Source: Clostridia bacterium (lineage in GTDB: Bacteria > Bacillota > Clostridia > Christensenellales > CAG-917). Taken from it: a stretch of 64,000 bases of DNA. The notes beneath the pieces were generated by a model, which saw nothing but the letters and a program-made list of their open reading frames with translations, was not told where the DNA came from and made no database searches. Shown here piece after piece: positions 32,661 through 61,690 of this stretch. Both the position numbers and the translations under genes were made by a program. The stretch covers positions 32,751-96,750 of the forward strand of contig JAFZMH010000007.1 in assembly GCA_017553325.1 (NCBI GenBank), in the 5' to 3' direction. Positions within the stretch are counted from its first letter, which is position 1. Every line of letters starts with the position of its first letter.

Positions 32661-32688
32661 AAAAGCACCGCATAAGCGGTGCTTTTTT
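32661..32688. terminator. Bidirectional terminator
   Basis: aaaagcaccgc-ataa-gcggtgctttttt. Downstream of the minus-strand EF-G paralogue and closes the ffs region. Confidence 0.85.
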
Positions 32689-32708
32689 GTTGTATTTGTT
32701 GGTAGTTA

Positions 32709-34772: not shown

Positions 34773-35015
34773 AACTACCTCTTGGGTTTATTTACTAACT
34801 TTTAATATTGTACAGTAATTTAATATAAATTTCAATCAAAATACAGCAAAAATTGGGTTTATTTTTGCACCCGACGCAAAAACCCGCTATCTAAACGCAA
34901 AAAATGTCGTTAGAATATCTAAATATTTTTATCAGCATACAACCTTCTCATTTCCGTTTTCAAGCGTTTTCGGGTGCGTTTTCAACTTGGAGTGGCAAAT
35001 TGCATATCTTGTTTT

Positions 35016-35729
35016 ATGACAAAAATAGGCGTATACGACAGCGGAGTCGGCGGACTCACCACCCTAAGAATTCTCGAACGCAAATTCCCTTTTTGCGATT
35101 TTTACTACCTTGCGGACAACAAAAATATGCCTTTCGGCTCAAAGGACGAAGCAGAACTCAAAGAAATAGTTTCAAAAGCGGTAAAAAAGCTAAAAGCGCA
35201 CAGCGAAATCCAAGTCCTCGCCTGCAATACCGCTTCAAACTTCTGCGAGCAAAAAGACGTGATAAAACTCTCTCCACCCACGACGGACGACGGAAAAACT
35301 CTCATTATGGCGACGCCTCAAACGCAAAGACGGTTGAAAGAGTCTGGAGCGTATGGAGAATCGCGATATTCTTTTGCCAATACTTGCGAACTTGCTTCGC
35401 TCGTCGAGGTGTACGTCTCTGTTGGCGCAAGAAAGAATTGTCTCAACATGAAAGAACTCACCCCCTATCTTGCAAGTAAACTCTTTGAGTTTAAAGGCGT
35501 GCAAAAGATAGTGCTCGGCTGTTCGCACTATCTCTACCTAAAAAACGAAATTTCGCGTATCCTCGGCGCGGTTGAATACCTGGACGGAAACGGCTCTGTC
35601 GTCTCCGCTCTTGAAAAATGCGTTGAAAAGAGCGAAAACTCCGGCAAGGTCGAATTTGACTTTACGGCGGACGACGAGAGCGCAAAGTATCAAAAAATCT
35701 ACGCTCTCTTGAAAACTACGCGCGAGTGA
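35016..35729 (+). CDS. murI: Glutamate racemase
   Basis: Start trimmed to ATG 35016. IGVYDSGVGGLTTL, catalytic LACNTAS and GCSHY motifs. Confidence 0.88.
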   Translation: MTKIGVYDSGVGGLTTLRILERKFPFCDFYYLADNKNMPFGSKDEAELKEIVSKAVKKLKAHSEIQVLACNTASNFCEQKDVIKLSPPTTDDGKTLIMATPQTQRRLKESGAYGESRYSFANTCELASLVEVYVSVGARKNCLNMKELTPYLASKLFEFKGVQKIVLGCSHYLYLKNEISRILGAVEYLDGNGSVVSALEKCVEKSENSGKVEFDFTADDESAKYQKIYALLKTTRE

Positions 35730-36585
35730 GAGAGAGGTTCAAGGCGTTTGAGAGTAAGACGGACGCGTTTTCCGCATAGACATCGACGTCCTTGGGCGCG
35801 ACTACGAGGTTGGACATATTTCTGTCGGCAAGCATACTCCTGAACGCATATTCGTCGAGAGGCGCGTCTACCAATTTGAAAAAGTCCTTGAAAAGTCCGT
35901 ACGTCAGCGTATTGAGCGAAAGTAACATCGGCACGCCGATTGAAAGTACGGGAACGCCGAGCACGGAGGAGTCTATTCTCTCCTTGTCCCCGCCCACTCC
36001 GCTCCCCGGCGTTATGCCCGCGGTTGAAAGTTGAAAAGACACTCCCACCCTCTTTGGGACGCTCGTCGCAAGGCTGTCTATAAGCACGGCAAAACAAGGT
36101 TCGATTTCCTTGACCACACCCTTTATAAACCTCGACGTCTGTATGCCAGTTTTGCCCAAAACGCTGGTTGATATGGCGCATACGGGAGGTTTATTTGCGG
36201 GTTTTTGCAATTTGTCGCTCGTCACTTCAAGTTTGTCGAACACCTTTTTGCCAAGGGAATCCGCGGCGATATTGCCGTTTCCGAGACACGCAACGAGCAC
36301 GGGATGCGTTCGGCTTTTCGCACCAATAAATCGCTTTATCGTCTGCGCAAGATAGGTCTCGATTGCCTTCGCGGGGCGAGAGCTCAAATATATCGACCTC
36401 TCGCAATCAAAAGTCGTATAGTCTCCAACCGCCCTACAAAGCCTGTCCGAAAGCTCCTTCGTCGTGATTTTGAGACTCCGCTTTACTATGCCGAATTCCA
36501 GTTCTTGCGACTTGCAATACTCGTTGAGCCCTAAATTTTCGGCGGTCTCCACCGCCATATCCGTGATGAAATCTTGAAATAACAC
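35716..36585 (-). CDS. gpr: Germination protease GPR (spore endopeptidase, A25 family)
   Basis: 289 aa. TDMAVE, GNGNIAADSLG, GITPGSGVGGDKE motifs. GTG start. Divergent from rpsT as in other spore formers. Confidence 0.8.
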   Translation of the reverse strand: MLFQDFITDMAVETAENLGLNEYCKSQELEFGIVKRSLKITTKELSDRLCRAVGDYTTFDCERSIYLSSRPAKAIETYLAQTIKRFIGAKSRTHPVLVACLGNGNIAADSLGKKVFDKLEVTSDKLQKPANKPPVCAISTSVLGKTGIQTSRFIKGVVKEIEPCFAVLIDSLATSVPKRVGVSFQLSTAGITPGSGVGGDKERIDSSVLGVPVLSIGVPMLLSLNTLTYGLFKDFFKLVDAPLDEYAFRSMLADRNMSNLVVAPKDVDVYAENASVLLSNALNLSLTRA

Positions 36586-36626
36586 AAGATTATTATTGCA
36601 AAACTGAAAAAATCAATGCAAAACGG

Positions 36627-36655
36627 TTGCAAGTTTTTTCTCTTTATGTTAATAT
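36627..36655 (+). promoter_or_regulatory. rpsT promoter (TTGCAA-17-TAATAT, TGn-extended)
   Basis: TTGCAA at 36627-32, TGTTAATAT at 36647-55. Confidence 0.6.
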
Positions 36656-36695
36656 GTCAAAGATATTTAGAGTACGAAGGTACAAGGAGTAAAAT

Positions 36696-36968
36696 ATGCC
36701 AAATATTAAGTCAGCAAAAAAGAGAGTTCTTACGTCTCAAAAGAAAAACGAAATCAACACAGCAAAAAAGAGCCGTGTTAAAACCGCTATAAAGAAATAC
36801 AACGCAGCGCTCGAAGCAGGCGACCTCGCTCTCGCAGAAGAACTTCTTCCGGAGACCGTCTCCATCATCGACAGAGCTATGTCCGACGGCATCTACAAAA
36901 AGAACACCGCCGCAAGAAAGAAAGCAACTCTCTGCCGCGCGCTCGATCAAGCAAAAGCAAACAAGTAA
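36696..36968 (+). CDS. rpsT: 30S ribosomal protein S20
   Basis: 90 aa. MPNIKSAKKRVLTSQKKNEINTAKKSRVKTAIKK. Confidence 0.96.
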   Translation: MPNIKSAKKRVLTSQKKNEINTAKKSRVKTAIKKYNAALEAGDLALAEELLPETVSIIDRAMSDGIYKKNTAARKKATLCRALDQAKANK

Positions 36969-36984
36969 TCAGTTTTTCAGTCAA

Positions 36985-37015
36985 AAAAGACTGTTCGTTT
37001 GAACAGTCTTTTTTT
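36985..37015. terminator. Bidirectional terminator (rpsT / S8 peptidase)
   Basis: aagactgttc-gttt-gaacagtctt with an A-run before and T-run after. Confidence 0.85.
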
Positions 37016-37046
37016 CGTTGCAAAATTTTGTTAAAACCCGTTATTC

Positions 37047-38906
37047 TCAGTCGTCGGACTTGATTTTCCCCGCCCTTCTTTGCAGGAAATAGCACCCGAA
37101 ACATATTGCGAATACCAAGATAATTCCACCCGCTATACCGATTGCGATATACGTATAAAGTTTGCCGTTGTCGGGCGCGGGTTCTTCAATTTGGACGAAA
37201 AAGACGTTGTCTATAAGCTCTCCGTTGACCTTGACGGTCACAACGTATTCGCCGTACTCTTCGGGGGTAAACTCGAAGACGTACTGCCCCGCTCCGCCCT
37301 TCTTGTACTCGCCGTTGACGTACCAAGCCACGGCGACGTTGTCCTTGCAATTCAGATAGTCCGAAATGTTGAAAACGTAGGTCTGCCCGACCTCGAATTC
37401 CGTCTCATCGCATTCTATCTCCGTCGTCTCTTTGGACGGAGTGACGAAATCTACGGTCACGGTCTTGGTCGCGCTCAAATTGTAATAGGCGGACGTGTAT
37501 CTTGCGACGATATCGTATTCGCCGACCTCGTCGCCCGGGGTAAACTCAGCGGACCGCCCTCTGCCTATTTCAATTTCCTCTTCGCCATTGTCGAGATACC
37601 ATACTATATCGTTTGAAAGCTCGTCGTTTTCACTGCTAGTCGGAAGCAGCGACGCAAAAAATTTCACCTTTTTGACGTCGCCTTTGGTCTGTTCGAGCGC
37701 GGAATTATCGCAGTCGATATATATCGAATAAAGCCCGTCGTCGGAGGCAAAGACGTTCATATCGAAAACTTTGAGCAAAACTTTGTTGTAGACGAGCGTC
37801 GAACTGTATGAAAACTTTATGATATTTGCAATTTCGCGCGGGTCCTTTGCGTTGTTTTCGCCCGTAGCCGCGGCGATTGCTCTGTATTTCAGCGTCGCGA
37901 GCGCAGCCCCAAAAGAAACGATAGGCGTCGCCATACTCGTACCGGTCAACGACTTATAGCCGTCGTTCGTCGCTCCGTCCGCGGACATAATACTCGCGCC
38001 GGGGGCCGCCAAATCGTATACCTTGCCATAGTTCGAGGTCGACCAAAGCGCGTATTTGTCGCCAACGTGCGAGAGGTTCATAACGCCTATGACGTTGGCG
38101 TTTGCGGCGGGATAATAGTAGTCGACTTTGCCACCGAAAACATTTGTCGTACTCATCTTGCCGTTGTTTCCTGCGGCGGCGACAAGCACGGCGGAATCCG
38201 CAAGTTCGCTCGTGATTATTCTGTCGTATTCAAGGTCGTTTGCGGCTCTGCTTGTCAATGACATGTTGATTACGTCCGCGCCGTTTTCTTTTGCGAATTC
38301 AAGCGCGTTTGCAAGAGTCGTAGGTGAAAAAGACGAGCCGCTATCCTTTGGATACGCCGCCTTTATAGGCAAAATTTTGATGTATTTTTCAAGGTTTAAT
38401 TCGTGTATAAGTATTGCGATTGTGCCGGCTACGTGGGTGCCGTGCATATCGGGCGCGTCGTCCAGAACGTCGTCTGATGCATATTGCTTTGCGGTGACGG
38501 TGTTTTTGCATATCAAATTGCCTTCCGAATCTCGATAAAGCACGTCGTACTCACCTGCGCCCTCGCTCTCGACAGTAGCGCCGTTTTCATCGTATTTGCC
38601 CGTGAAGATCTGATGATTGAAATTGATGCCGGAGTCAATGACCGCCACGACGACGGGGTTTCTTTCGAGCGCGGAAAAGTTGTAGACTCTTTCGTCCTCA
38701 AACCAGCTGTTTACAGTAGTTTTGAGAGTTGCAATATCCAAAAAATTCTCGCCGAAATACCAGTCTTTGTCCTCGTCTACAACGTCGAAAACGTATTCGT
38801 CCGGCGAAACTGCATAAGTCGAATTTACAAAAACTCCGCAAAAAACAAAAAGGACGCACGACGCTATCGAAAAAAGTATCGTCGCTGTCCTTATTGCCAG
38901 TTTCAT
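37047..38906 (-). CDS. Membrane-anchored S8 (subtilisin-like) serine peptidase with C-terminal Ig/PKD-like domains
   Basis: 619 aa. Signal peptide, catalytic triad VAVIDSGIN / HGTHVAGTIA / GTSMATPIVS, C-terminal TM anchor YIAIGIAGGIILVFAICFGCYF. Confidence 0.85.
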   Translation of the reverse strand: MKLAIRTATILFSIASCVLFVFCGVFVNSTYAVSPDEYVFDVVDEDKDWYFGENFLDIATLKTTVNSWFEDERVYNFSALERNPVVVAVIDSGINFNHQIFTGKYDENGATVESEGAGEYDVLYRDSEGNLICKNTVTAKQYASDDVLDDAPDMHGTHVAGTIAILIHELNLEKYIKILPIKAAYPKDSGSSFSPTTLANALEFAKENGADVINMSLTSRAANDLEYDRIITSELADSAVLVAAAGNNGKMSTTNVFGGKVDYYYPAANANVIGVMNLSHVGDKYALWSTSNYGKVYDLAAPGASIMSADGATNDGYKSLTGTSMATPIVSFGAALATLKYRAIAAATGENNAKDPREIANIIKFSYSSTLVYNKVLLKVFDMNVFASDDGLYSIYIDCDNSALEQTKGDVKKVKFFASLLPTSSENDELSNDIVWYLDNGEEEIEIGRGRSAEFTPGDEVGEYDIVARYTSAYYNLSATKTVTVDFVTPSKETTEIECDETEFEVGQTYVFNISDYLNCKDNVAVAWYVNGEYKKGGAGQYVFEFTPEEYGEYVVTVKVNGELIDNVFFVQIEEPAPDNGKLYTYIAIGIAGGIILVFAICFGCYFLQRRAGKIKSDD

Positions 38907-38916
38907 AGTTCACCCC

Positions 38917-38937
38917 AAAACCGTGCTAGCGGTTTTT
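38917..38937 (-). terminator. Hairpin terminator between the WG-repeat gene and the peptidase gene
   Basis: aaaaccg-tgctag-cggtttt. T4 follows on the minus strand. Confidence 0.5.
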
Positions 38938-38943
38938 ATTCTA

Positions 38944-39798
38944 TCAAATCCAAACGAGACTGCCGTCGGGTTTTATCGTCGCCCATTTGCCGTCCTTCTT
39001 GACCTTTGCCTCTCCGCCTTCGAATGCGGTTGCGGCGTCGAATTCGGGGGCAATCACCATCTCGTTGTTCTTGTTGATATAGCCGCACTTCTCGCCGACG
39101 CAAACCATTGCCAAGCCTTCCGAAAAACTCATAGCCGTGTCGTACATGAGCGGAATGACCAAATTGTTGTCCTTGTCGATATATCCGCACTTCTCGTCGA
39201 CCTCAACGGAAGCAAGCCCCTCTTTGAAAGCAAAGATTTCGTCGTACATAGTGGGAATAACGATGGAAAAACCGTTGGAGTATCCCCACTTGCCACCTTT
39301 CAAGACCTTGCGCCACTCCTCGATGGGAAGAGGCCCCGTAAGTTTTTCCGGCTTTTCGGGCTTTTGAGGTTTCGCAGGTTGTTTCGATGCCGTATCGTCT
39401 CTGCCGTCCCTGTCGGCAAGCCCGAATTTTGCGCGTTTGTCCTTCTTTTGTTCCTGATTATTCTCGCTCTTTTGCGGTTGCTTTTGAGCGGTTGAAACAC
39501 TTTCGTCTCCGCCTCTTAAATACATTCCCTTCTGCTTCAAGGCGTTTTTGATTTCAAGGAGAATCTTCTTGTTGAGCCCTTGAATCTTGTACATTTCCTT
39601 CTCGTCACGCTTGACGACGTCCGCCGCTATCTTGACGCGGTTTTTGAGGAGAAGTTCAACGGTAGTGGAAGACAACCCGAGGTTTTCCACGGGCGTCGTG
39701 AGTTGCTTTTCACTGAATTTTGCCACCTGCGCCTGTTCCGCTTCGACGTTTTTTTGCGCGGGTTTGCGTTTTTTATAATAAAACTTTTTGTTTGCCAT
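38944..39798 (-). CDS. RpoA-CTD-like helix-hairpin-helix domain fused to WG (KWG) beta-repeats
   Basis: 284 aa. N-terminal LGLSSTTVELLLKNRVKIAADVV...IQGLNKKILLEIKNAL, a low-complexity linker, then three repeats of the type KCGYIDKDNNLVIPLMYD..FSEGLA. Confidence 0.65.
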   Translation of the reverse strand: MANKKFYYKKRKPAQKNVEAEQAQVAKFSEKQLTTPVENLGLSSTTVELLLKNRVKIAADVVKRDEKEMYKIQGLNKKILLEIKNALKQKGMYLRGGDESVSTAQKQPQKSENNQEQKKDKRAKFGLADRDGRDDTASKQPAKPQKPEKPEKLTGPLPIEEWRKVLKGGKWGYSNGFSIVIPTMYDEIFAFKEGLASVEVDEKCGYIDKDNNLVIPLMYDTAMSFSEGLAMVCVGEKCGYINKNNEMVIAPEFDAATAFEGGEAKVKKDGKWATIKPDGSLVWI

Positions 39799-39922
39799 AT
39801 TCTTTTCCTTTTAAAAATATTAACATAAAATACGAAATATTTCAAGTGATAAACTTATAATTATCATTATAATAAACTTTATTGTTGTTGACTAAACCAC
39901 CTTCAGAGTTTATACTTAATTT

Positions 39923-42310
39923 ATGACACACAAATTCTCAAACGACAAATTTTTGATATTTTCTGTGATAGTCGTCGCGGTGTTGACGCTTTTTGCGGCG
40001 GTGTTTATTTTTGCGCCGATTTCAAGCGGAACGGCTTTTGCGGACGGCGAAGTCGACGTCGTGTTCCCGACGAGCGGCTATATGCAATCGGAAGCGCCGA
40101 CTCTGATTTCCGCAAACGAGAACTATCTTCTCATCTACGACTCGGCACAAAACAGACTGTACGTCAGGTCGAACACGAATCTCGGCAATTACGACTACGT
40201 TTTGAACCTCGCGAGCGCGGACAAACTTTTTGCGGTTGGAAACAAGGCGTTTTTCGTCGCGGACGATGCCTATTACTCCCTCGATTTAACAAGCAAAACC
40301 TCCGCTCTCCAACAGGTTGCGCTCGCCACGCCGGATGAAATCTCGTATTTCACCTCGGACGGGACTTATCTCTACGCGGTGTCGAGCTGGGGCTATATCA
40401 CGATATACGACGATAGTTTCGCTCCCGCGCTCAACCACAATAACACGAGAAACGCAAATCTGCTCGGTGAACTTGCGCTCGTCGGCGAAGCCGATACCCT
40501 CTATATCTTCGGAACGAGCTACGGGTTTGCGAGATACACGATTTTGAACCTAACCTCAGGCGATGCGGAACAACTGGCAAGTCCTTTGTCGGGCGTTCAG
40601 GCGGCGTCTTTGGGAAGCGACGTTATATACGCCTTGTCGAGCGGAGAAATCATCTGCGTCGACAAGTCCACTGGGACTATGCTCCTGTCAAGCGGTATCG
40701 AACCCACCGCGTTTTCCGCCTATGGCGACAAACTCTTTACGATTGAAGGAAACAGTGTGCGCGTGTATACGCTGTCGAACGATTTGACAAGTATAGAACT
40801 CGTTGACTCACTCTCTATGACGGGCAACGACGCAACGCATTTCAATAGCCCCGTCGACATCGAAAAACTCCCCTCAAAATTTGCCGTTGCGGACGCAAAC
40901 AACAACCGCATAGCCTATTTCGACGGCACCGGGAACGAACTTTCATCCTTCCAACTCGACTCGACGCCAAAGCGTTTGACTCGCGACGGAAGCGTGCTTT
41001 ACATTCTCACGGACAATCAAATTCTCGAACTAGACAGTTTGTACGTCAAGACGCGCTACGACGCAGAAGGCGTGATCGATATACTCTATCTCGACAAACT
41101 CTACGCTTTGAAAGCGGACGGCGTGTACGTGCTGATAGGCGGCGAATTCTCCAAGTTCTACGACGTGCAGAACGCGGTCTCACTCGCTTGCGCCGAGGAA
41201 GGTAAAAACCTGTTCGTCGGCACGGCGACTGAAATAGTCGTACTCGACAAGCAAGGAACCAAACTCCCGACTGCCCTCACCGGCGACTTTGCGGGACTCA
41301 AAGATATTGCCGTCGACTATGCGGGCAATATCGTCGTTGCATACGCGGACAAGGTCGACCTATATACGAACAACATAAGTTCCTTGGCTCTCGCGTCCTC
41401 CACGCCACTTGCGGGCGAATACAGAGCGACCTTGACGGGTTGCGTGCTCGCGGGCGACAGAGTGTGTTTTACAACGCAAGAGTCCTACGTCGGCTCCTTG
41501 CAATTAAACGTATTTACAAAGGCAACGTACGCCGCTCCTCAAATTGCGGACGACGTTTACTCCCTCGCCTACTCGTATATGCGCCCCTCGAGCGAAAACG
41601 CATACGTTCTTCCGAGCACGCTGAGAGCGGAGAGCATTTCGCTCGCTCCTCAGGACGTGGTCATCGTCTTGCAATACGAAGCCGCGCCACAGGGGCTTAA
41701 ACTCGCCTTCGACGGCACTTCCCTAACGTTTATTCACGAAAATGACTTTGAAGTGGTTGAAACCGAGGCTTTAACAGGCGAATACGTCGCAAAAGAAGAA
41801 ACAGTGCTATACAAAATGCCGAACGTTGAAAGCGCAAATAACGTGACGCTCGCAAGCGACGAGCACGTCGTTTTCAAGCGCACGACCGCAGGTTTTGACG
41901 GCGGTATTTGGGTTGTCGTCGAATATGAAAACGCAGAGTATTTTGCAAAACGAGCCGACTTTGAAGAATACGTCGCTCCCGCCCCCGAACGCAAAGCGGA
42001 ATACGGCAGAGCAAAGGGAACGCGCGTCGGCGGAATTGTCAACGTCTATGCTTCGGCAGACGCGGAAAGCGAAATAATCCTTGAAATCGCGGACGGCGCA
42101 AAAGTTGAAATTCTTGAAACCCTCGACGGCTTCTACAAAGTAAAAGTTGACGAAACCGTCGGCTATATGAGAAGCGAGGACGTGCAACTCAAGGGACTCA
42201 CTACCGTGCAAATCATCTCAATCGTGCTTGCGGTTTTGGTGTTGCTTGCAGGCTCGACGGTCTTTGCCGCAATATACCTCACAAAAAAGAAAGAAGCCAC
42301 AAAAGAATAA
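39923..42310 (+). CDS. Large surface protein: N-terminal signal/anchor, beta-propeller-like repeats, SH3b-like domain, C-terminal TM anchor
   Basis: 795 aa. Repeated YxxxxG/LY(A/V) blade-like segments. SH3b-like GGIVNVYASADAESEIILEIADGAKVEILETLDGFYKVKVDETVGYMRSEDV. C-terminal TM IISIVLAVLVLLAGSTVFAAIYL. Function unknown. Confidence 0.6.
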   Translation: MTHKFSNDKFLIFSVIVVAVLTLFAAVFIFAPISSGTAFADGEVDVVFPTSGYMQSEAPTLISANENYLLIYDSAQNRLYVRSNTNLGNYDYVLNLASADKLFAVGNKAFFVADDAYYSLDLTSKTSALQQVALATPDEISYFTSDGTYLYAVSSWGYITIYDDSFAPALNHNNTRNANLLGELALVGEADTLYIFGTSYGFARYTILNLTSGDAEQLASPLSGVQAASLGSDVIYALSSGEIICVDKSTGTMLLSSGIEPTAFSAYGDKLFTIEGNSVRVYTLSNDLTSIELVDSLSMTGNDATHFNSPVDIEKLPSKFAVADANNNRIAYFDGTGNELSSFQLDSTPKRLTRDGSVLYILTDNQILELDSLYVKTRYDAEGVIDILYLDKLYALKADGVYVLIGGEFSKFYDVQNAVSLACAEEGKNLFVGTATEIVVLDKQGTKLPTALTGDFAGLKDIAVDYAGNIVVAYADKVDLYTNNISSLALASSTPLAGEYRATLTGCVLAGDRVCFTTQESYVGSLQLNVFTKATYAAPQIADDVYSLAYSYMRPSSENAYVLPSTLRAESISLAPQDVVIVLQYEAAPQGLKLAFDGTSLTFIHENDFEVVETEALTGEYVAKEETVLYKMPNVESANNVTLASDEHVVFKRTTAGFDGGIWVVVEYENAEYFAKRADFEEYVAPAPERKAEYGRAKGTRVGGIVNVYASADAESEIILEIADGAKVEILETLDGFYKVKVDETVGYMRSEDVQLKGLTTVQIISIVLAVLVLLAGSTVFAAIYLTKKKEATKE

Positions 42311-42342
42311 ATATGATTTGGTTTTCTTATCTCATCAAATTT

Positions 42343-42369
42343 AAAGGACTTCTTCAAGAAGTCCTTTTT
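42343..42369 (+). terminator. Rho-independent terminator (usable from both strands)
   Basis: aaaggacttct-tca-agaagtccttt followed by T5. Confidence 0.85.
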
Positions 42370-42440
42370 GCTAAATGAATTATACTATTTAACAACAAAT
42401 GAGCGCGATATTTGGATGAAGAGCGCAAATAATAATGTTT

Positions 42441-42563
42441 AAAACCGCTCGGGAGTGATGAGATGCTAGGAAGGACGCTTTGTTTGAAAAGAGCGTACTT
42501 TTGCGTACGTGATTGCACTAAAAAAGCGACCTAACAACGCAGGTCGCTCTCTCGTGCGGTTTT
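42441..42563 (+). repeat. AYGAG-core structured intergenic element, copy E (long form)
   Basis: Closing helix aaaaccgc-t-cgggag (42441-55) / ctctcg-t-gcggtttt (42549-63). Core ATGAG-ATGC-TAGGAAG. Outer helix ggacgcttt/aaagcgacc. Apical hairpin gcgtac-ttttgc-gtacgt. 3' core CTAACAAC-GCAG-GTCGC. The 3' arm overlaps the stop codon (42562-64) of the reductase gene. Confidence 0.8.
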
Positions 42564-44670
42564 ATTTAATCTTGTGGATGGCAACGTCATACGCCGCTCT
42601 AGTAGCATCCGCAATACGCCCTATCTTGCTTGCGTCGCCCACGACGAAGAGTCTTTCAAACTTGCCATCAAACTCTTTTGCGAGATTGTTGACGGGACGT
42701 GCGCCAAGCGACAGCACCACTGCGTCGAAATCATAGTGCTCGGGTGCGCCTGTGGACACCGGCTTTCTGTTCTTGTCAAGTTTGACGGGTTCAAGCACTA
42801 CGCCTGTCTCATCAATCGAGTTGAGTTTGTGAGAAAGAATATATTCCGTCCCCTTCGCGTTGAGTTTGGGGAGAACGTCGTCGAGGTGCTGGAACCAAGT
42901 GCCGGGGGCGACTCTGTCCGCCATTTCGACGATTGTCACCTTGTTGCCGTATTCGACGAGCATTTCGGCGGTTTCAAGTCCCGTCATACCCGAGCCGATA
43001 AGAGCGACGTTTTTGTTTTCGAGATACTTTTCACCGCTCAAAATCTGCGTCGTCGTGTAGACGTTTTCGCGGTTGACGCCCTCGATTGAACGCGGACGCA
43101 CTGCGCACGCGCCGGTTGCAATGATGACTGCGTACGGGTTGAGCGCTTGTACGGTTTCAAGGTCCGCCTTTACGCCGAGACGAATTTCCGCGCCGACTTT
43201 TTCCGCATTGGTCTTCATATCGACGAAGCACCAGCCGAGTTTCTCCTTCTTTGGCGGTTTGTTGGCGAGTTGAATTTGTCCGCCGACTTCCTTTGCCTGT
43301 TCGAGAACGATAGGTTTGAACCCGCGTCTACCAAGCATTTCCGCCGCCGTGAGACCCGCAACGCCTGCGCCTACGACGACGACAGTTCTGCCCTCGCCGT
43401 CCTTGACGAGATTGTCAAATTCTCTTTCGCGCCCGACAGTCGGGTTGACGGAGCAATAGCCGTGGTCGCCGTGATAGGCGTTGTCCTGCATGGATTGTAT
43501 GCAGTAGAGACAGCAGATGCAACGCTTGATTTCGTCCTCTCTGCCCTCTTGCGCCTTTTCCGCCCAGTGCGGGTCAGCGATGTGCGGACGCCCGAGCGAC
43601 ACGAAGTCTTGTACGCCCTCTTCAAGTTGTTTTTCCGCTTGTTCGGGAGTTCTTATGAGGTTAGCGGCTATGACCGGAATGTTCACTTCCTTCTTGACCG
43701 CCGCCGCGAGATACTTTCTCCAGCCGCATTCAAAACTCGTTGGCTCTAGCCAATAGTTGAACGTGTCGTAGCTTGCGGACGAGACGTCAATTGCGTCCAC
43801 GCCCATATCGGCGATTGCCTTCGCATATTTGACGCCCTCTTCCATCGTGTAGCCTTTGCCGAGTTTGCCTATCTTCTCGTAGAATTCGTCAATGGTGAGA
43901 CGGACGACGATTGGATAATCTCCGCATTCCTTTCTTATGCCCTCGATGATTTCGCGCACGAACCGCAAGCGGTTTTCAAAACTTCCGCCGTATTCGTCAT
44001 TTCTGTGGTTTGTATTCGGGCTCAAAAATTGTTGGATGAGGTAGCCGTGCGTGCCGTGGAGTTCAACGCCGTCCACGCCTGCTTTTTTGCAGCGCACCGC
44101 ACCGTCTATATACTGTTGAATGAGTTGTTTGACTTCCTTGTGAGAGAGCGCTCTGACCGCGGTGTTCGCATAATATGCGGGTTCGCAAGCGGAGGCGGAG
44201 ACAGCCTTCTTGGAAATGTGATGCTTCTCAAGGAATGGCGCGAGTTTCGGAGCCATACTGAACAGCATCTTCGGGAACTTCTTGCAAATTCTCGTGCACG
44301 CGATGCAGAGAGGCACGGTGCCGATTGCAAGACCGACGTTTTGACGGCCCGGGTGATGCAGTTGCACGAAGAGTTTTGCGCCGTGTCTGTGAATACGATT
44401 TGCAAATTCCGTTAGTCCCGGTATTTGATAATCGTGGCTCACGCCGAGTTGCGCAAACGCCGCCGCGCCCGTCTTGTCGTTGATACGGGTAATCTCGGTC
44501 ATGATGAGTCCCGTTCCGCCCTTCGCGCGCTCCTCATAGTAGTCCATGAGTTGCTCGGTTGTGCATCCGTCGAATTGTCCGAAGCCCATGAGCATCGGGG
44601 ACATAACTATACGGTTTTTGATCTCGCAGTTGCCTATTTTCATAGGACTGAACAACATTTTGTATTCCAT
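42562..44670 (-). CDS. OYE-type FMN domain fused to FAD/NAD(P) oxidoreductase (2-enoate reductase / 2,4-dienoyl-CoA reductase family)
   Basis: Start trimmed to ATG 44670 (MEYKMLFSPMKIGN). LHHPGRQ, Fe-S motif CICCLYC...C, Rossmann VVVVGAGVAGLTAAE and ALIGSGMTGLE. Confidence 0.8.
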   Translation of the reverse strand: MEYKMLFSPMKIGNCEIKNRIVMSPMLMGFGQFDGCTTEQLMDYYEERAKGGTGLIMTEITRINDKTGAAAFAQLGVSHDYQIPGLTEFANRIHRHGAKLFVQLHHPGRQNVGLAIGTVPLCIACTRICKKFPKMLFSMAPKLAPFLEKHHISKKAVSASACEPAYYANTAVRALSHKEVKQLIQQYIDGAVRCKKAGVDGVELHGTHGYLIQQFLSPNTNHRNDEYGGSFENRLRFVREIIEGIRKECGDYPIVVRLTIDEFYEKIGKLGKGYTMEEGVKYAKAIADMGVDAIDVSSASYDTFNYWLEPTSFECGWRKYLAAAVKKEVNIPVIAANLIRTPEQAEKQLEEGVQDFVSLGRPHIADPHWAEKAQEGREDEIKRCICCLYCIQSMQDNAYHGDHGYCSVNPTVGREREFDNLVKDGEGRTVVVVGAGVAGLTAAEMLGRRGFKPIVLEQAKEVGGQIQLANKPPKKEKLGWCFVDMKTNAEKVGAEIRLGVKADLETVQALNPYAVIIATGACAVRPRSIEGVNRENVYTTTQILSGEKYLENKNVALIGSGMTGLETAEMLVEYGNKVTIVEMADRVAPGTWFQHLDDVLPKLNAKGTEYILSHKLNSIDETGVVLEPVKLDKNRKPVSTGAPEHYDFDAVVLSLGARPVNNLAKEFDGKFERLFVVGDASKIGRIADATRAAYDVAIHKIK

Positions 44671-44756
44671 AATTCTCCCCAAATTATTTTTTTAATACGT
44701 AAATATTTTAGCACTTTGAAATAGATATTTCAAGAGGGGTATAGCATTTTTTGTAA

Positions 44757-44780
44757 GAAAAAAAGGCACTTATGTGCCTT
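44757..44780 (-). terminator. Rho-independent terminator downstream of folD and element D
   Basis: On the minus strand: aaggcac-ataa-gtgcctt followed by T7. Confidence 0.8.
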
Positions 44781-44803
44781 CTATGGTTGCATTTTGTTAA
44801 AAT

Positions 44804-44918
44804 CGTTTGATTTGGACGAGATGAGAGAAAGCGTGCTTTTTGCGAAAGCTAAGTGTACAAAGGCGTACGCGGTGCTTGAGAACAAAGTGCGCTGACAAAG
44901 CAGTCGCTAAATCAAGCG
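44804..44918 (+). repeat. AYGAG-core structured intergenic element, copy D (long form)
   Basis: 12-bp closing helix cgtttgatttgg (44804-15) / ctaaatcaagcg (44907-18, two G-T pairs). Core ACGAG-ATGA-GAGAAAG. Outer helix agcgtgcttt/aaagtgcgct. Apical hairpin gtgtac-aaaggc-gtacgc. 3' core CTGACAAA-GCAG-TCGC. The 3' arm is the folD stop codon plus its last three codons. Confidence 0.8.
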
Positions 44919-45764
44919 ATTTTGGATTTTATAAGCCTTAACCGTGTTTTGAAGGAGCATAGTCACCGTCATAGGACCTACGCCACCCGGGACGGGGGTT
45001 ATATAACTGCACTTTGGCGCGACGTTTTCAAAATCAACGTCTCCGCAGAGTTTGCCGTTTTCGTCTCTGTCCATGCCGACGTCCACGACGACTGCGCCCT
45101 CTTTGACCATATCGGCTTTGAGGAATTTCGCCTTGCCGATTGCCACGCAAACTATGTCAGCCTGACGGGTGATTTCGCCGAGGTTTTTCGTGCGACTGTG
45201 GCAAATCGTCACCGTTGCGTTTTTGTCGAGAAGAAGTTGAGCAAGAGGTTTGCCGACGAGGTTGGAGCGTCCCACCACGACAGCGTTTTTGCCTTCAAGT
45301 TCGATATTGTAGTGCTCAAGTATGCGCATAATGCCAAACGGCGTGCAAGCGATTAGGCACTCGCGTCCCGTCCAAAGTCTGCCCTTTTGCACGTAGTGGC
45401 AACCGTCGACGTCCTTTGCGGGGTCGATGAGGTCGAGAAGCGGGTTTTCGTCGAGATGCTTAGGGAGCGGAAGTTGCAAGATTATGCCGGAAACCTCAGG
45501 GTTCTCGTTTAAAGACTTTATCGTCTCAGCGACTTGCTCTGCCGTGCTGTCTCCCGGGAGCGTGCACATAAACGACTTGACGCCGACTTCTTCGCATCCT
45601 TTCATTTTGTTGCGCACGTACACGAGCGACGCGGGGTTGTCGCCGACGAGAATAACCGCAAGCCCTACGGGCTTGTCAAGGTTCATAGCCTTGATTTCAT
45701 CGACTTCTGCTTTGATATTTTGTCTCGTCACGCTTGCAACGAGTTTTCCGTCTAGAATTGTCAT
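44907..45764 (-). CDS. folD: Bifunctional methylenetetrahydrofolate dehydrogenase/cyclohydrolase
   Basis: 285 aa. ILVGDNPAS.VYV, GIILQLPLP, VVVGRSNLVGKP, PVPGGVGPMT motifs. Confidence 0.95.
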   Translation of the reverse strand: MTILDGKLVASVTRQNIKAEVDEIKAMNLDKPVGLAVILVGDNPASLVYVRNKMKGCEEVGVKSFMCTLPGDSTAEQVAETIKSLNENPEVSGIILQLPLPKHLDENPLLDLIDPAKDVDGCHYVQKGRLWTGRECLIACTPFGIMRILEHYNIELEGKNAVVVGRSNLVGKPLAQLLLDKNATVTICHSRTKNLGEITRQADIVCVAIGKAKFLKADMVKEGAVVVDVGMDRDENGKLCGDVDFENVAPKCSYITPVPGGVGPMTVTMLLQNTVKAYKIQNRLI

Positions 45765-45777
45765 GGGGTTCTCCTGA

Positions 45778-47280
45778 TTATTTAATAGTTGTTGTGTTCT
45801 TTTGAATTACGTCGTGAGCGCCGCCTTCAACAATAGATGTTGCGGAGACGACTGTCATCTTGGCGACTTTGTGGAGTTGCGGAATCGTGATTGCGCCGCA
45901 GTTGCACATTGTTGATTTGACCTTGTAAAGGCTCTTGTTGACGTTGTCTTTCAATGGTCCTGCGTACGGGACGTAGCTGTCCACGCCCTCCTCAAAACTG
46001 AGACCGCTCTTTCCTCCGAGGTCGTATCTCTGCCAGTTGCGCGCGCGGTTGGAACCTTCGCCCCAATACTCTTTGACGTAGTTGCCGTTGATGTTGAGTT
46101 TGTTCGTCGGAGACTCGTCGAAGCGCGCGAAATATCTGCCGAGCATCATAAAGTCGCTACCCATAGCGAGCGCGAGCGTCATGTGATAGTCCTGCACGAT
46201 GCCGCCGTCCGAGCATACGGGAACGTAGATACCCGTCTTTTCGTAATACTCGTCTCTCGCCTTTGCGACCTCCATAACCGCAGTCGCCTGACCTCTGCCT
46301 ATGCCCTTTTGTTCGCGGGTAATACAGATAGAGCCACCGCCGATACCTACCTTGACGAAATCTGCGCCACATTCTGCAAGGAACAGAAAACCTTCTCTGT
46401 CAACGACGTTTCCTGCGCCAACCTTGACTTTATCACCGTATTTTGCACGGATAAAGTCCAAAGTCTTCTTTTGCCAAATCGTATAGCCCTCGCTCGAGTC
46501 TATGCAGAGCACGTCCGCGCCAGCCTCGATGAGTGCGGGAACGCGCTTTTCATAGTCAAGTGTGTTTATGCCCGCGCCGACCATATATCTCTTTTGGTCG
46601 TCGAGGAGTTCGTTCGGGTTCTCCTTGTGAGCGTCGTAGTCCTTGCGGAAGATGATATAAAGAAGGTTGCCGTTGTCGTCGATAATCGGGAGTTGGTTGA
46701 GTTTATGGTCCCAAATGATGTCGTTTGCTTCGGCAAGCGTGGTATTCTTGTTGCCGACGACGAGTTTTTCAAACGGAGTCATAAAGTCTGCGACTTTTGT
46801 GTCCGGCGACATTCGACTGACGCGGTAATCGCGGCTTGTGACGATGCCGACGAGCTTGCCGTTGGACGTGCCGTCCAAAGTGACCGCAATAGTGTTGTGT
46901 CCCTTGGTTTCGACAAGGTACAAGACGTCGGCGAGAGTGTCCGTCGGTTTGACGTTGCTGTCGGACACGACGAAACCCGCTTTGTAGTTCTTTACCCTGC
47001 GCACCATAGCCGCCTCGTTTTCAATCGTCTGCGAGCCGTAGATAAATGAAATTCCGCCTTCTTTTGCCAGCGCGATTGCAAGCGTATCGTTGGAAACGGA
47101 CTGCATAATTGCGGACACGAGCGGAATGTTAAGCTCGATTGCCGGCTTCTCTCCCTTTTTAAACTTCGTAAGCGGAGTTTTGAGCGACACGTTTGCGGGA
47201 ATGCAGTTCTCGTCCGTATAGCCCGGAATGAGCAAATATTCGCTGAAAGTTCTCGATGGTTCTTCAAAATACTTTGCCAT
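45778..47280 (-). CDS. guaB: IMP dehydrogenase family protein (with CBS pair)
   Basis: Start trimmed to ATG 47280 ([22 protein letters not shown]). Catalytic loop [17 protein letters not shown] region, 500 aa. Confidence 0.8.
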
Positions 47281-47310
47281 AATACTCTCCAAAAAAGTTA
47301 AATTTTTTAT

Positions 47311-47339
47311 ATAATACCTATTTTGTCGCAGTTTGTCAA
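47311..47339 (-). promoter_or_regulatory. guaB-folD promoter (TTGACA-17-TATTAT)
   Basis: On the minus strand, TTGACA is at 47339-34 and TATTAT at 47316-11. Confidence 0.65.
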
Positions 47340-47384
47340 AAGAAAACGTGCAAATAATCGACATTTTTGAAATAAATTTCAAAT

Positions 47385-47414
47385 AAACAAAAACTCGACC
47401 AAATCGCCGAGTTT
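47385..47414 (-). terminator. Rho-independent terminator after rnc
   Basis: On the minus strand: aaactcg-gcgatttggt-cgagttt followed by ttgtttattt. Confidence 0.6.
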
Positions 47415-49570: not shown

Positions 49571-50767
49571 TTATTTTTTGAGCACGAGTTCTTTGGTCTC
49601 TCTTGCGATAGAAAGTTCCTCGTTTGTCGGGAGAATGAGCACTTTGACCTTGCTCGACGGTTTGGAGATAACTCTCGTGCCGTCTCCTCTGCCCTTGTTG
49701 GCTTCGAAGTCAAAGTCTACGCCCAAGTACTCCATATCGCGCATAACGAGTTCACGCATATAGTCGCTGTGCTCGCCGATACCGCCCGTAAAGACGATTG
49801 CGTCCACGCCGTTCAAGGTTGCCGCAAACGCGCCGATATACTTTTTGATGCGATACGCCGTGATGTCGACTGCGAGTTTTGCCTTTTCGTTGCCTTCCTT
49901 TATTGCGCTTTCAAGGTCGCGCATATCACTTGATAGTTCGCTCACGCCGAGCATACCGCACTTTTTGTTGAGGAATTGAACGACTTCGTCGGCGGGTATG
50001 CCGAGTTTCTTCCTCATAAAGTCGATTGCCGCCGGGTCGATGTCGCCGGAACGCGTTCCCATGACGAGTCCTTCAAGAGGCGTAAAGCCCATCGAAGTAT
50101 CTTGGCATTTGCCGTCCTTGACCGCGGAGATTGAAGAGCCGTTGCCAAGATGGCAGATGATGATCTTTGCATCCTTGCGTCCCAAAATCTTGATCGTCTC
50201 TTCGCTCACGAACTTGTGAGACGTGCCGTGAAAACCGTATTTGCGAATTTTGTATTTGTCGTACGCTTCGTACGGAATGCCGTACATATAAGCCTTCGGC
50301 GGCATCGTGCTGTGGAAAGTCGTGTCGAACACCGTGACCATAGGTACGCCCGGCATGACCTCTCTGCAACTCTTGATGCAGGCGATGTTGCCCGGCATAT
50401 GGAGCGGTCCTAGTTCCGCATTCTTTTCGCAGATACGGATGACTTCGTCATCAACCACAACGGAATGCTTGAAATCTTCTCCGCTGTGGAGGACTCTGTG
50501 CCCGACTGCGGCAATCTCTTTCGTGGACTTGATTGCACCGTATTTTTCGTCGACCATCGCTTTAAGCACGAGGTTGATGGCGTCGGTGTGGTCCTTCATG
50601 TCCTGCTTGATGTTGAGAGTTCTGCCGTCGGCGGTCTTTTGGGTGAGTTCGCTCCCCGGGAAGGTGATACGCTCGCAGAGACCTTTGAGCAATACGCTTT
50701 CCGTCTCCATGTCGATAAGTTGGTATTTGAGTGATGAACTGCCTGCGTTGATAACAAGTATTTTCAT
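49571..50767 (-). CDS. ackA: Acetate kinase
   Basis: 398 aa. MKILVINAGSSSLKYQL, GHRVLHSGE, FHGTSH motifs. Confidence 0.96.
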   Translation of the reverse strand: MKILVINAGSSSLKYQLIDMETESVLLKGLCERITFPGSELTQKTADGRTLNIKQDMKDHTDAINLVLKAMVDEKYGAIKSTKEIAAVGHRVLHSGEDFKHSVVVDDEVIRICEKNAELGPLHMPGNIACIKSCREVMPGVPMVTVFDTTFHSTMPPKAYMYGIPYEAYDKYKIRKYGFHGTSHKFVSEETIKILGRKDAKIIICHLGNGSSISAVKDGKCQDTSMGFTPLEGLVMGTRSGDIDPAAIDFMRKKLGIPADEVVQFLNKKCGMLGVSELSSDMRDLESAIKEGNEKAKLAVDITAYRIKKYIGAFAATLNGVDAIVFTGGIGEHSDYMRELVMRDMEYLGVDFDFEANKGRGDGTRVISKPSSKVKVLILPTNEELSIARETKELVLKK

Positions 50768-50801
50768 TTCTGTCTCCTAATGTTGTTTTCTAAAATCCTG
50801 A

Positions 50802-50907
50802 TTATTTGTATGAGTTGCAAGGAACCGTGCTTTTGACCGCAATGAGCGTACTAAGCCGTACGTGATTTGTGGGCAAAAGTGCGTTGACACAGCAAATCGC
50901 CAAATAA
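50802..50907 (+). repeat. AYGAG-core structured intergenic element, copy C (long form)
   Basis: Closing helix ttatttg (50802-08) / caaataa (50901-07). Core ATGAG-TTGC-AAGGAAC. Outer helix cgtgcttttg (50826-35) / caaaagtgcg (50874-83) with tandem G-T pairs. Apical hairpin gcgtac-taagcc-gtacgt. 3' core TTGACACA-GCAA-ATCGC. Lies between the pta stop (50917) and the ackA RBS. Confidence 0.8.
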
Positions 50908-50916
50908 AATAGCACG

Positions 50917-51915
50917 TTATTTAACTGACTGAAGTGCTGTTATGGCCGCTACAGCCGCTATATCTTCCGCAACACAACCACGGCTTAAATCGTTGACCGG
51001 AAGTGCAAGACCTTGCATAATCGGTCCGATTGCCATGCAGTTGCCAAAGCGTTGGGCAAGTTTGTAGCCGATGTTGCCTGCGTCGAGGTTCGGGAATACG
51101 AGGACGTTTGCTTGTCCTGCGACGGGGCTGTCGCCCGCTTTTTGCTTTGCTACGCTGTCAACCAAGGACGCGTCGAGTTGAAGTTCGCCGTCCACGCAGA
51201 TTTCCGGATGTTGTTCGCGTACCTTGTTGTAGGCGGAACGAACCTTCTCGACAGATTCGTGATTTGCGCTTCCCTTCGTGGAGAACGAGAGCATTGCAAT
51301 CTTCGGCTCCATCTCGCAGATCTTCTTCGCGGAGTCCGCCGCGGCAACGACTATGTCTTTGAGTTGGTCGTCCGTCGGGTACGGAATGACCGCGCAATCG
51401 GAGAAAATGTATGCCGGATACTTCTTGTATTTGAATTCCTCGGGAGGAACCATAACGAAGCAACTGGAAACCGAACTGATGCCGGGAGCCGCCTTTACGA
51501 CTTGGAATGCCGCACGGGAGACGTCTGCGGAACTGAATACCGCGCCGCCCACGACGCCGTCTACGTCACCGCGCTTCAAAGCGACGCACGCAAAGAACAT
51601 ATTGTTTTGGGTGACGAGTTGTCTCGCCTGCTCTTCCGTCATGCCCTTCGCTTTGCGAAGTTCAAACAAAGTGTTTGCATATTCGTCGACGTGTTTGCTC
51701 GTCTTCGGATCGTCAAAAGCAACGCCCGTCAAATCGACTTCCGGGAATTTTGCCTTGATTTCCTCTTCGTTGCCGATGAGAACGACTTTGCAGACGCCTT
51801 TCTTTGTGAGGATTTCCGCTGCCTTTGCGGCTCTTACGTCAAATCCTTCCGCGAGTGCGATGGTCTTGCCGAGTAAACTTGCTCTTTTCATAAGGTTTTC
51901 AACAAATTCTGTCAT
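50917..51915 (-). CDS. pta: Phosphate acetyltransferase
   Basis: Start trimmed to ATG 51915 (MTEFVENLMKRA). 332 aa PTA_PTB domain (ALAEGFDVRAAKAA, GGAVFSSADVSR, SFSTKGSA). Confidence 0.93.
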   Translation of the reverse strand: MTEFVENLMKRASLLGKTIALAEGFDVRAAKAAEILTKKGVCKVVLIGNEEEIKAKFPEVDLTGVAFDDPKTSKHVDEYANTLFELRKAKGMTEEQARQLVTQNNMFFACVALKRGDVDGVVGGAVFSSADVSRAAFQVVKAAPGISSVSSCFVMVPPEEFKYKKYPAYIFSDCAVIPYPTDDQLKDIVVAAADSAKKICEMEPKIAMLSFSTKGSANHESVEKVRSAYNKVREQHPEICVDGELQLDASLVDSVAKQKAGDSPVAGQANVLVFPNLDAGNIGYKLAQRFGNCMAIGPIMQGLALPVNDLSRGCVAEDIAAVAAITALQSVK

Positions 51916-51928
51916 AAACGCTCCAAAA

Positions 51929-51945
51929 TGCAAATATCATTTGCA
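51929..51945. promoter_or_regulatory. Perfect palindrome TGCAAAT-atc-ATTTGCA in the pta 5' leader
   Basis: 7-bp arms, 14 nt upstream of the pta ATG, downstream of a TTGCTT-17-TATAAT promoter candidate on the minus strand. Could be an operator or an RNA hairpin. Confidence 0.35.
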
Positions 51946-55653: not shown

Positions 55654-55701
55654 TTTTTACCATTTTTTTATCTAATCTATTTTTATATTAAACCCACAAA
55701 A

Positions 55702-55773
55702 CTGCTTGATTGAGATGAGTTTCGAGGAAGGTGCGCACGCAAACCTGACAAGGAAAACCGCTCAATCAAACTG
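55702..55773 (+). repeat. AYGAG-core structured intergenic element, copy B (short form)
   Basis: 9-bp closing helix ttgattgag (55706-14) / ctcaatcaa (55761-69). Core ATGAG-TTTC-GAGGAAG-[aggt...acct hairpin]-CTGACAAG-GAAA-ACCGC. The 3' arm contains the methyltransferase stop codon (55766-68). Confidence 0.78.
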
Positions 55774-56629
55774 TTTTGAACGTAGCAAAGGCAGTGCAAC
55801 CCTGCGGAAGAATCAGTCCTTCTTCAGTCTGTAAACCGATTTCGTCCGCGTCAATAACCGCGTTATTCGGCAAGGCGAGTTTCAATATGTTTGCCATAAC
55901 CGTAGGTTGCAGTCCCGTCGTATAACTGTTGAGGCACACGAACAGCGGATTGTCGCCAAGAAGCGATGATACAAGATTCATAAGTTCGCTTATTCCCTCT
56001 TCGATCTTCCACTTTTCACCGTTTGGACCTCTGCCGAAGGAGGGCGGGTCGAGGATTATCGCGTCGTAGTGTTTGCCACGTCTGATTTCTCTTTGGCAGA
56101 ATTTGAAGCAGTCGTCGACGATATATCTCATCTCTCTGTCTTCAAGTCCCGACAACCTGACGTTTTCGCCCGCGCGCTCGACCATCGCCTTCGCGCTGTC
56201 AACGTGGCACACGCTCGCACCCGCTTTAAGGCAGGCGACGGACGCCGCGCCCGTATAGCCGAACAGGTTGAGGACGCTGATTTTACGCCCCGCGGTTTCA
56301 ATGAGTTTCATCATTCTGTCCCAGTTGACAGCCTGCTCGGGGAAAAGTCCCGTATGTTTGAACCCCATGAGTTTGAGGGAGAACGTAAGGTCGCGCCAGC
56401 CGAGTTTAAACTCCGTATTGATGGGTTTTTGCCATTTCCACGCGCCACCGCCGGAAGAGCTGCGTTCGTACACCGCCGAGATGTTTTTGTTGCTTCTCAG
56501 CGGAGTTTTTGCGTGCCAAATTACCTGCGGGTCGGGACGCAGTAAAACGAGATCTCCCCATCTCTCGAGTTTTTCGCCGTCGCCGGTTGCGATGACGGAG
56601 TATTCTTTCCAATCGGGTGCGATTTTCAT
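55766..56629 (-). CDS. Class I SAM-dependent (rRNA large-subunit RlmI/RlmK-like) methyltransferase
   Basis: 287 aa. LNLFGYTGAASVA SAM-binding motif and ILDPPSFGRG. Confidence 0.75.
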   Translation of the reverse strand: MKIAPDWKEYSVIATGDGEKLERWGDLVLLRPDPQVIWHAKTPLRSNKNISAVYERSSSGGGAWKWQKPINTEFKLGWRDLTFSLKLMGFKHTGLFPEQAVNWDRMMKLIETAGRKISVLNLFGYTGAASVACLKAGASVCHVDSAKAMVERAGENVRLSGLEDREMRYIVDDCFKFCQREIRRGKHYDAIILDPPSFGRGPNGEKWKIEEGISELMNLVSSLLGDNPLFVCLNSYTTGLQPTVMANILKLALPNNAVIDADEIGLQTEEGLILPQGCTAFATFKTV

Positions 56630-61613: not shown

Positions 61614-61690
61614 GGAGGCATGGCTCAGTTGGTTAGAGCACACGGTTCACATCCGTGAGGTCGTTGGTTCGAGTCCAACTGTCTCCACCA
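61614..61690 (+). tRNA. tRNA-Val (anticodon CAC)
   Basis: Cloverleaf by hand: acceptor GGAGGCA/TGTCTCC, D arm GCTC...GAGC, anticodon stem CACGG/CCGTG with loop TTCACAT, T arm GTTGG-TTCGAGT-CCAAC, encoded CCA. Confidence 0.88.

Follow-up and report, generated by a model that had tools for sequence, protein, structure and literature searches.

A hairpin-forming repeat in the pta–ackA spacer of a Clostridia genome, plausibly a worn copy of a mobile family that mostly lies at stop codons

The window considered here is the whole 64-kb stretch of DNA analysed, which derives from a Clostridia metagenome-assembled genome (MAG). On its minus strand it carries two adjacent open reading frames whose translations resemble phosphotransacetylase (pta) and acetate kinase (ackA), and Pfam recognizes the same genes on contigs L001 and L002 as PTA_PTB and Acetate_kinase. 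Gene callers place the start of pta on identical contigs six codons inward from that of the open reading frame (Table 1). The pta stop codon (TAA, 50917–50919) and the ackA start (50767) are separated by 149 nt (50768–50916), and the original prediction that 106 of these belong to a repeated element, lying antisense to the two genes, holds. This element, copy C, is real: it matches the core pattern of a multi-copy family exactly (50810–50900), and its score with covariance model R1, described later in the text, corresponds to an E value of about 1e-19 to 1e-20. The core of copy C remains intact; the outer stem is degraded, the P1 closing stem having about 7–8 contiguous bp against a family median of 17. 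On balance, we regard copy C as a worn member of a ~130-nt hairpin-forming multi-copy repeat.

Table 1. Positions of copy C and its parts, of the genes on either side, and of the other copies in the window
Feature	Position	Strand	Remarks
Copy C, limits of the original prediction	50802..50907	+	inner closing stem TTATTTG / CAAATAA; from fold
Copy C, full R1 match including degraded outer-stem region	50791..50920	+	76.5 bits
Copy C, P1 5′ arm	50802..50808	+	TTATTTG; pairs with 50901–50907
Copy C, 5′ core strand	50809..50825	+	T-ATGAG-TTGC-AAGGAA-C; from alignment and covariation
Copy C, P3 distal hairpin	50826..50883	+	from sequence and fold
Copy C, 3′ core strand	50884..50900	+	TTGACACA-GCAA-ATCGC; from alignment and covariation
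Copy C, P1 3′ arm	50901..50907	+	CAAATAA; pta stop codon 9 nt beyond
pta	50917..51933	-	open reading frame; phosphotransacetylase-like translation
ackA	49571..50767	-	open reading frame; acetate kinase translation
ackA ribosome-binding site	50774–50778	-	AGGAG; within the ~34 nt between ackA and copy C
Copy A	22904–22983	+	R1 42 bits; short P3; directly after ftsY stop
Copy B	42438–42567	+	best in window; R1 109 bits; 18-bp P1 with A/T-run flanks
Copy E	44796–44927	+	R1 73 bits; core mutated, ACGAG...GAGAAAG
Copy D	55695–55781	+	R1 56 bits; 43-nt deletion in P3

Read on the plus strand, the 5′ core of copy C consists of the near-invariant ATGAG, the 5′ strand of helix P2 and then AGGMA. P3 opens with the helix CGTGCTTTTG (50826–50835)/CAAAAGTGCG (50874–50883), and both sequence and fold bear out the tandem T28.G81/G29.T80 step that had been read in it. 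The same step had been ascribed to a copy labelled ‘D’; the GTGC/GTGC step is present, as GCGTGCTTTTTG ... CAAAGTGCGC, in the copy at 44796–44927 (copy E in Table 1), and the helix is absent from the short copy at 55695–55781. P3 of copy C then continues with CCGCAA/TTGTGG, a TGA/GAT internal loop whose bases by eye form tandem G.A pairs, and GCGTAC-TAAGCC-GTACGT, closed by a G.U pair.

The family was traced with a two-part pattern, ATGAGNTKCNAGGMA ... TRACANNGNARNYCGC, derived by hand comparison of weak repeats; the core pattern is ATGAG-NTKC-NAGGMA ... TRACANN-GNAR-NYCGC, set within the closing stem. Four matches to the two-part pattern lie in the window, all on the plus strand, where shuffled sequences lead one to expect none. 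A metagenome collection yielded 92 stretches with the pattern, most matches spanning 88–93 nt, as in copies B and C. A contiguous closing stem was missing, by our own test, in 10 of the 98 distinct pattern matches. Six of these 10 (L004, L009, L038, L040, L049 and L060) match by chance, in coding or unrelated DNA, and the other four (L045, L054, L061 and L089) are real copies in which the 3′ arm is degraded or replaced and which R1 later recovered. R1 was built from an alignment of 67 sequences with the structure given by RNAalifold, and it returned 119 hits in ~660 kb of fetched DNA.

In the window itself R1 finds five copies, again all on the plus strand, one of them missed by the pattern. 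The genes that precede them are ftsY, a flavin oxidoreductase gene, folD, pta and a methyltransferase gene. Copy B follows the stop codon of the flavin oxidoreductase gene (42562..44682), and the TGA of the methyltransferase open reading frame lies inside the P1 3′ arm of copy D. The folD open reading frame (44907..45764) extends into copy E, its TAG (44907–44909) standing at the start of the P1 3′ arm, and the last six or seven residues of FolD are therefore encoded by element DNA. Copies B and E both lie within ~20 kb between rnc and smc (about 27500–47400) that are missing in the relative L097 (13358–13660).

No match to the repeat family was found in Rfam 15 when the whole window was searched at the gathering threshold, and at E <= 10 copies C and D, nine short loci and one canonical copy gave only noise; the families covered by this comparison include T-box, hammerhead, twister, attC-like and Clostridiales-1. 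Viral contigs, plasmids, phages and E. coli genomes contained no match to the repeat, and a literature search turned up no relevant description of it. In species-representative genomes, searched with the short-gap version of the pattern, there was one chance match, in a coding region. A conserved open reading frame was rejected as an explanation of the core: many copies meet a TAG at codon 4 from the conserved ATG (ATGAGATGCTAG), and in copy C the reading frame closes at codon 9. Hammerhead ribozyme, K-turn or box C/D motif, group II intron domain V and attC were likewise set aside on a comparison by eye, which is to be read as giving leads. The core does not fit them: no more than two helices meet at the AUGAG loop, the non-bulged strand is longer by four bases and AAC/GTT sites are missing. 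Elsewhere in the window a lysine riboswitch (779–945) and two tRNA genes (28732–28802 and 61614–61687) reach Rfam gathering scores.

Beyond the closing stem P1 an A is bulged out, and then come U.G, G-C and A-U pairs that vary little or not at all. Next outward stand a G opposite a purine (a G.R mismatch) and the 3-bp helix P2, UGC/GCA, which covaries to UUC/GAA. P2 leads to a purine-rich internal loop, NAGGMA over YURACANN, and then to P3, a variable distal hairpin of ~58 nt with further GA-rich internal loops. The terminal hairpin of P3 is conserved as NUAC-loop-GUAN, closed by a G.U pair in 26 of 30 sequences. Across the 67 sequences RNAalifold gives 29 pairs, 21 of which show compensatory changes; once the alignment is guided by the model, pairing is found in 90.7% of stem cells, versus 62% when shuffled and 33–42% when the partners are slid, and 26 of the 29 pairs have changed on both sides. 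Covariation is also seen between unpaired positions. M34 and R108 occur as A-G (n=61) or C-A (n=26) with one exception, and N30 is U with AC at positions 112–113 (n=25), G with AA (n=13) and A with CA, CC or AA. A family of ~130 nt with covariation of riboswitch grade, including loop changes that look isosteric, that appears mobile and has no match in Rfam 15 is of interest in its own right.

The two strands of the element are not equivalent. The plus strand, that which reads ATGAG, gives the more stable fold in 83 of 86 copies (mean 9.4 kcal/mol), and wobbles in the stems, with the invariant one excluded, number 123 G.U versus 64 A.C (p = 2e-5). Wobble pairs specific to the plus strand are invariant or nearly so, and on it the conserved loops are rich in purines, with facing GA dinucleotides that by eye form tandem G.A pairs. 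Fold stability, the excess of G.U and the purine-rich loops therefore identify the plus strand as the selected form, either as RNA or as folded single-stranded DNA. The plus strand of the copy C spacer folds at -40.4 kcal/mol (z = -2.55). Were this modest z-score of copy C taken by itself, a chance resemblance or an ordinary hairpin belonging to no family might suffice, but such a reading is refuted by the model score, by pattern matches where none are expected and by the covariation, and its probability is practically nil.

That all RNA-like features, the G.U pairs, the internal loops with GA as read by eye and the loop covariation, reside on the plus strand would be understandable if this strand were made as an independent small RNA, or formed the structured 5′ portion of an antisense transcript that converges with the 3′ end of the adjacent gene; RNA from copy C would then be antisense to the pta–ackA junction. 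The T-run that follows P1 on this strand in the Clostridia subfamily and the convergent arrangement with the neighbouring gene speak for the same view. We nevertheless consider it very unlikely. By eye the upstream flanks share no conserved promoter at a fixed distance, no promoter consensus precedes copy C, and copy C is only ~34 nt from the ackA start codon. A terminator after P1 is missing in many subfamilies, and some copies lie in the sense orientation inside rRNA, tRNA and mRNA operons.

The position of the element relative to genes follows a rule that is unusually exact. Long open reading frames were taken to stand for genes. Of 97 neighbours lying downstream of the structured strand, 76 are convergent genes by this measure, and 59 of these 76 have their stop codon between -21 and +6 nt from the 3′ end of the model. 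In a further 13 copies a gene on the same strand ends within ~25 nt of the 5′ end of the element, from -24 to +12 relative to the model start. An explanation of this placement at stop codons could bring to light either a novel mode of insertion-site selection or a 3′-end module of a new kind. Other contexts occur: one tRNA gene has a copy fused to its 5′ end and a second copy after it, and in L053 a 23S rRNA gene contains a single copy, placed at the tip of a helix that we take, by comparison with the E. coli sequence, to be helix 25. A short-P3 form stands in the sense orientation between an rnfE-like gene of the Rnf–Nqr family and nth on at least nine contigs of one lineage. The Nth protein of this lineage is ~84% identical to that of Methylobacillus, and the sequence points to Betaproteobacteria; in Methylobacillus itself and in one Methylophilaceae MAG no element was found next to nth. 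A marine lineage keeps an element after ahpC, and its best named AhpC relatives, at ~85% identity, are Gammaproteobacteria. As judged from the genes that flank it, then, the family is present in more than one phylum: in the Clostridia MAG and in lineages where those genes are similar to ones of Beta- and Gammaproteobacteria. The annotation of gut and rumen genomes would gain from recognizing these copies, which could be mistaken for small RNA genes or terminators.

Among close relatives the pta–ackA junction occurs both with and without the element. Where AckA is 97% identical to that of the window (L102 and L103), the spacer is 39 nt long; at 95% identity (L097) it is 58 nt, and at 86% (L099–L101, L100 being from a human gut metagenome) it is 17 nt. 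None of these spacers contains the element, whereas the 149-nt spacer of the window does, and contigs of other samples that encode an identical AckA have the identical junction. Aligned with the empty sites, the extra DNA of the window begins at the first base after the pta TAA. As the relatives lack the element here, copy C is a lineage-specific insertion, and by this comparison of junctions it arrived after the split from the relatives with 97% identical AckA.

Similar insertion polymorphism among close relatives is found at ftsY and rpmF. The site of copy A is empty in the 95% relative L097, and the insert begins right after the ftsY stop codon. At rpmF the element stands right after the stop codon in L099–L101; an ordinary terminator takes this place in the window, L097 and L102. 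Copy D and a full-length copy in L097 go back to one insertion: copy D has lost 43 nt of P3, and the two differ by a compensatory change from GTG/CAC to GAG/CTC in P1. The 86% relatives have a gene encoding a T5orf172/MUG113 domain right after ftsY, the spot taken by copy A in the window (L099, 19776–20486; L101, 19080–19790). Half-copies, tandem copies and rearranged copies exist as well, some with the 3′ half exchanged for a small UUCG hairpin. The P1 arms form terminal inverted repeats that are specific to each subfamily and conserved at their outer ends (for example AAAACCGC/GCGGTTTT and GGACTTAC/GTAAGTCC). No target-site duplication is seen outside P1 or at the pta, rpmF and ftsY sites, where diverged flanks could hide short ones. 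Insertion into pre-existing terminators was rejected, the empty ftsY and pta sites having no terminator and the outer part of P1 being conserved within subfamilies.

The best explanation of these observations, and the one towards which we lean, is that copy C is a partly decayed copy of a non-autonomous mobile repeat of ~130 nt. The plus strand of the window folds into a long irregular hairpin, the form under selection, and the repeat would spread within genomes through an enzyme acting in trans, most likely one that recognizes the folded strand. New copies would be inserted at the base that immediately follows a stop codon and would in most cases have their structured strand opposite the gene. 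Neither a transposase or recombinase near the copies nor a longer autonomous version with a transposase was found in the ~660 kb of fetched DNA, only nearby half-copies, and in an all-against-all comparison of flanking open reading frames the only recurring proteins were those of orthologous loci and generic ABC ATPases.

Several findings, besides the missing target-site duplication and the lack of an enzyme or autonomous version in this DNA, go against a mobile repeat of this kind. The unpaired core is conserved between the Clostridia MAG and the proteobacteria-like lineages, and its covariation outside Watson–Crick pairing looks more like that of a working RNA than of transposon ends. Some lineages appear to have a single conserved locus, after ahpC or between the rnfE-like gene and nth, and that orthologous copies keep their pairing by compensatory change argues for a benefit at the locus beyond selfish spread. 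It is conceivable, if rather doubtful, that the family is an undescribed class of structured nucleic acid, either RNA or folded single-stranded DNA, found in more than one phylum and homing, most often in antisense, to the nucleotide just past a stop codon by a mechanism without known precedent, while doubling as a module for the processing or termination of rRNA, tRNA and mRNA. If so, its targeting might be coupled to the 3′ ends of open reading frames or transcripts, or be guided by the fold.

Known repeats offer partial parallels to the mobile repeat that we favour. The ERIC or IRU sequences of enterobacteria and the Correia elements of Neisseria are imperfect palindromes of ~100–150 nt, present in many copies in transcribed intergenic DNA near gene ends. 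Their presence differs among close strains and their long RNA hairpins can affect mRNA processing or termination, but each is confined to one bacterial group and is bounded by TA duplications. Our family resembles them in size, copy number, placement at gene ends, presence or absence at given sites and the long hairpin. It differs from them in showing no duplication, in a core that is conserved, with loop covariation, from the Clostridia MAG to proteobacteria-like lineages, in sitting on the stop codon and in its orientation preference of 59:13. REP and REPIN sequences, mobilized by RAYT, are extragenic hairpins downstream of genes, present in hundreds of copies, with compensatory change and with a strand-specific recognition that depends on the fold. 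In contrast, the present repeat has no 20–40-nt unit headed by GTAG in inverted doublets, and its arms are asymmetric, as read by eye from the alignment. No RAYT was seen near its copies, and it is present in a Clostridia MAG. The EFAR repeats of Enterococcus and bcr1 of Bacillus cereus are stem-loop repeats of ~150–170 nt that lie within a few nucleotides of stop codons and are co-transcribed with the upstream gene, each limited to a species group. Our family differs from them in its wider range, and they are not known to share a core with it. The L053 copy, at the putative tip of helix 25, recalls the intervening sequences of 23S rRNA, of which helix 25 is the classical site in bacteria, but this is one case only and we know of no report of such intervening sequences as a genome-wide repeat after protein genes.

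The attC sites of integron cassettes are a parallel to a reading in which the element acts as folded single-stranded DNA, as attC, REP/REPIN and IS200 ends do, and in which replication, not transcription, sets its orientation. They are imperfect palindromes of 57–141 nt that begin at or within the stop codon of the preceding open reading frame, have conserved ends and a variable middle and fold on the strand opposite the open reading frame. The repeat shares with attC bottom strands a place at the ends of open reading frames with the folding strand opposite the gene, and one strand is strongly preferred though no promoter is evident. All five window copies lie on one strand, in a window whose plus strand has negative GC skew throughout, and 59 of 68 loci have negative skew on the strand of the element. 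However, where genes share the strand of the element the skew is mixed, seven negative and six positive, and in these short loci skew is inseparable from gene strand. By eye, most copies read GTCAGG in place of GTTRRRY and lack RYYYAAC, and no GTAG head of REP was seen. There is no integrase or cassette array, the neighbours being housekeeping genes in conserved order, and no candidate enzyme stands among them. A site acting as folded single-stranded DNA seems decidedly improbable to us.

Members of the gut and rumen Clostridia subfamily have an A-run on one side of P1 and a T-run on the other, so that the complete hairpin resembles a two-way terminator; full copies of this subfamily may serve as two-way terminators or 3′-end hairpins of the preceding gene. 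A compact G+C-rich hairpin with a U-run is found on the gene-sense strand in nine of the 119 copies, copy B included, beginning 17–22 nt into the model match (~18 nt in copy B, just beyond the oxidoreductase stop codon), and on the structured strand in none of the 119. Such a built-in terminator was rejected as the cause of the antisense orientation, since it occurs in these nine copies only. Many other subfamilies have no U-runs at all, and termination therefore cannot be the general reason for conservation of the family.

The same features bear on the possibility that the element is a cis-acting RNA module selected locus by locus, whether in 3′-end formation, in two-way termination or insulation, or as a site for a double-strand-specific RNase, and that copy C, as in the original prediction, may separate or tune pta and ackA, a role supported by nothing but its position. 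Besides the A/T-run flanks and the compact terminators, this would account for the strong covariation at stems and loop positions, for the pairing that copy D kept through compensatory change and for single loci conserved on many contigs in the marine and Methylophilaceae-like lineages. It would also suit the copy that takes the place of an ordinary terminator at rpmF, and the sense-strand copies in helix 25 of 23S rRNA and before a tRNA, where long stems are typically processing sites. We think it unlikely, however, given that in ~80% of copies the neighbouring mRNA is the complement of the conserved, wobble-bearing strand, that the subfamilies without U-runs are many, that copy C lacks the outer stem and any terminator features and that the closest relatives do without the element at pta–ackA.

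If copy C is instead a decaying mobile repeat, little need change for the acetate genes. A simple consensus scan of the spacer agrees with the original prediction in finding no sigma-70-like promoter and no terminator-like site on either strand. The 17–58 nt that separate pta and ackA in relatives fit an operon, so co-transcription of the complement of copy C in a pta–ackA mRNA is a reasonable inference. This mRNA would carry the complement as an imperfect intercistronic hairpin of ~100 nt, with the ackA ribosome-binding site free. The predicted fold of the mRNA strand leaves that site unpaired and, for the spacer, amounts to -28.6 kcal/mol (z = 0.07), no better than shuffled sequence. Copy C has no compact hairpin with a U-run on either strand, its flanks are not U-rich and, in our own reading of the sequence, the equivalent of the compact hairpin is reduced to 3 bp; it therefore probably reads through as a passenger hairpin. 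A terminating copy between pta and ackA would probably not be tolerated. The suggestion that the element could uncouple or tune the two genes is thus replaced by a more modest one, that copy C would be a tolerated, decaying passenger and no dedicated regulator, with a small effect on expression at most, the insert being recent, dispensable in sister lineages and devoid of terminator features.

Three minor observations were made along the way. Orphan 5′ halves of the element, comprising a stem arm and the ATGAG...AGG core, occur in L083 (~1710–1780, minus strand) and L088 (1200–1280), 100–180 nt upstream of complete copies with nearly the same stem arm. A recurrent module, CACACTTCGTGTGGTTT(T), which forms a UUCG-loop hairpin followed by a T-run, is found on rumen-type contigs, where it replaces the 3′ half of the element or separates tandem copies (L016, 5975–6030; L054, ~7110–7135; L059, ~2395–2415; L061, 8760–8820; L076, ~12065–12090). 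Finally, the large SRP RNA that Rfam places at 31944–32207 of the window is followed, within the region 31944–32669, by two more copies of a ~130-nt unit that overlaps the SRP RNA 3′ end. One is diverged (32315–32475), the other (32509–32669) is about 93% identical over the 90-nt repeat core, and each contains a CUUCGG hairpin and a terminator-like hairpin.
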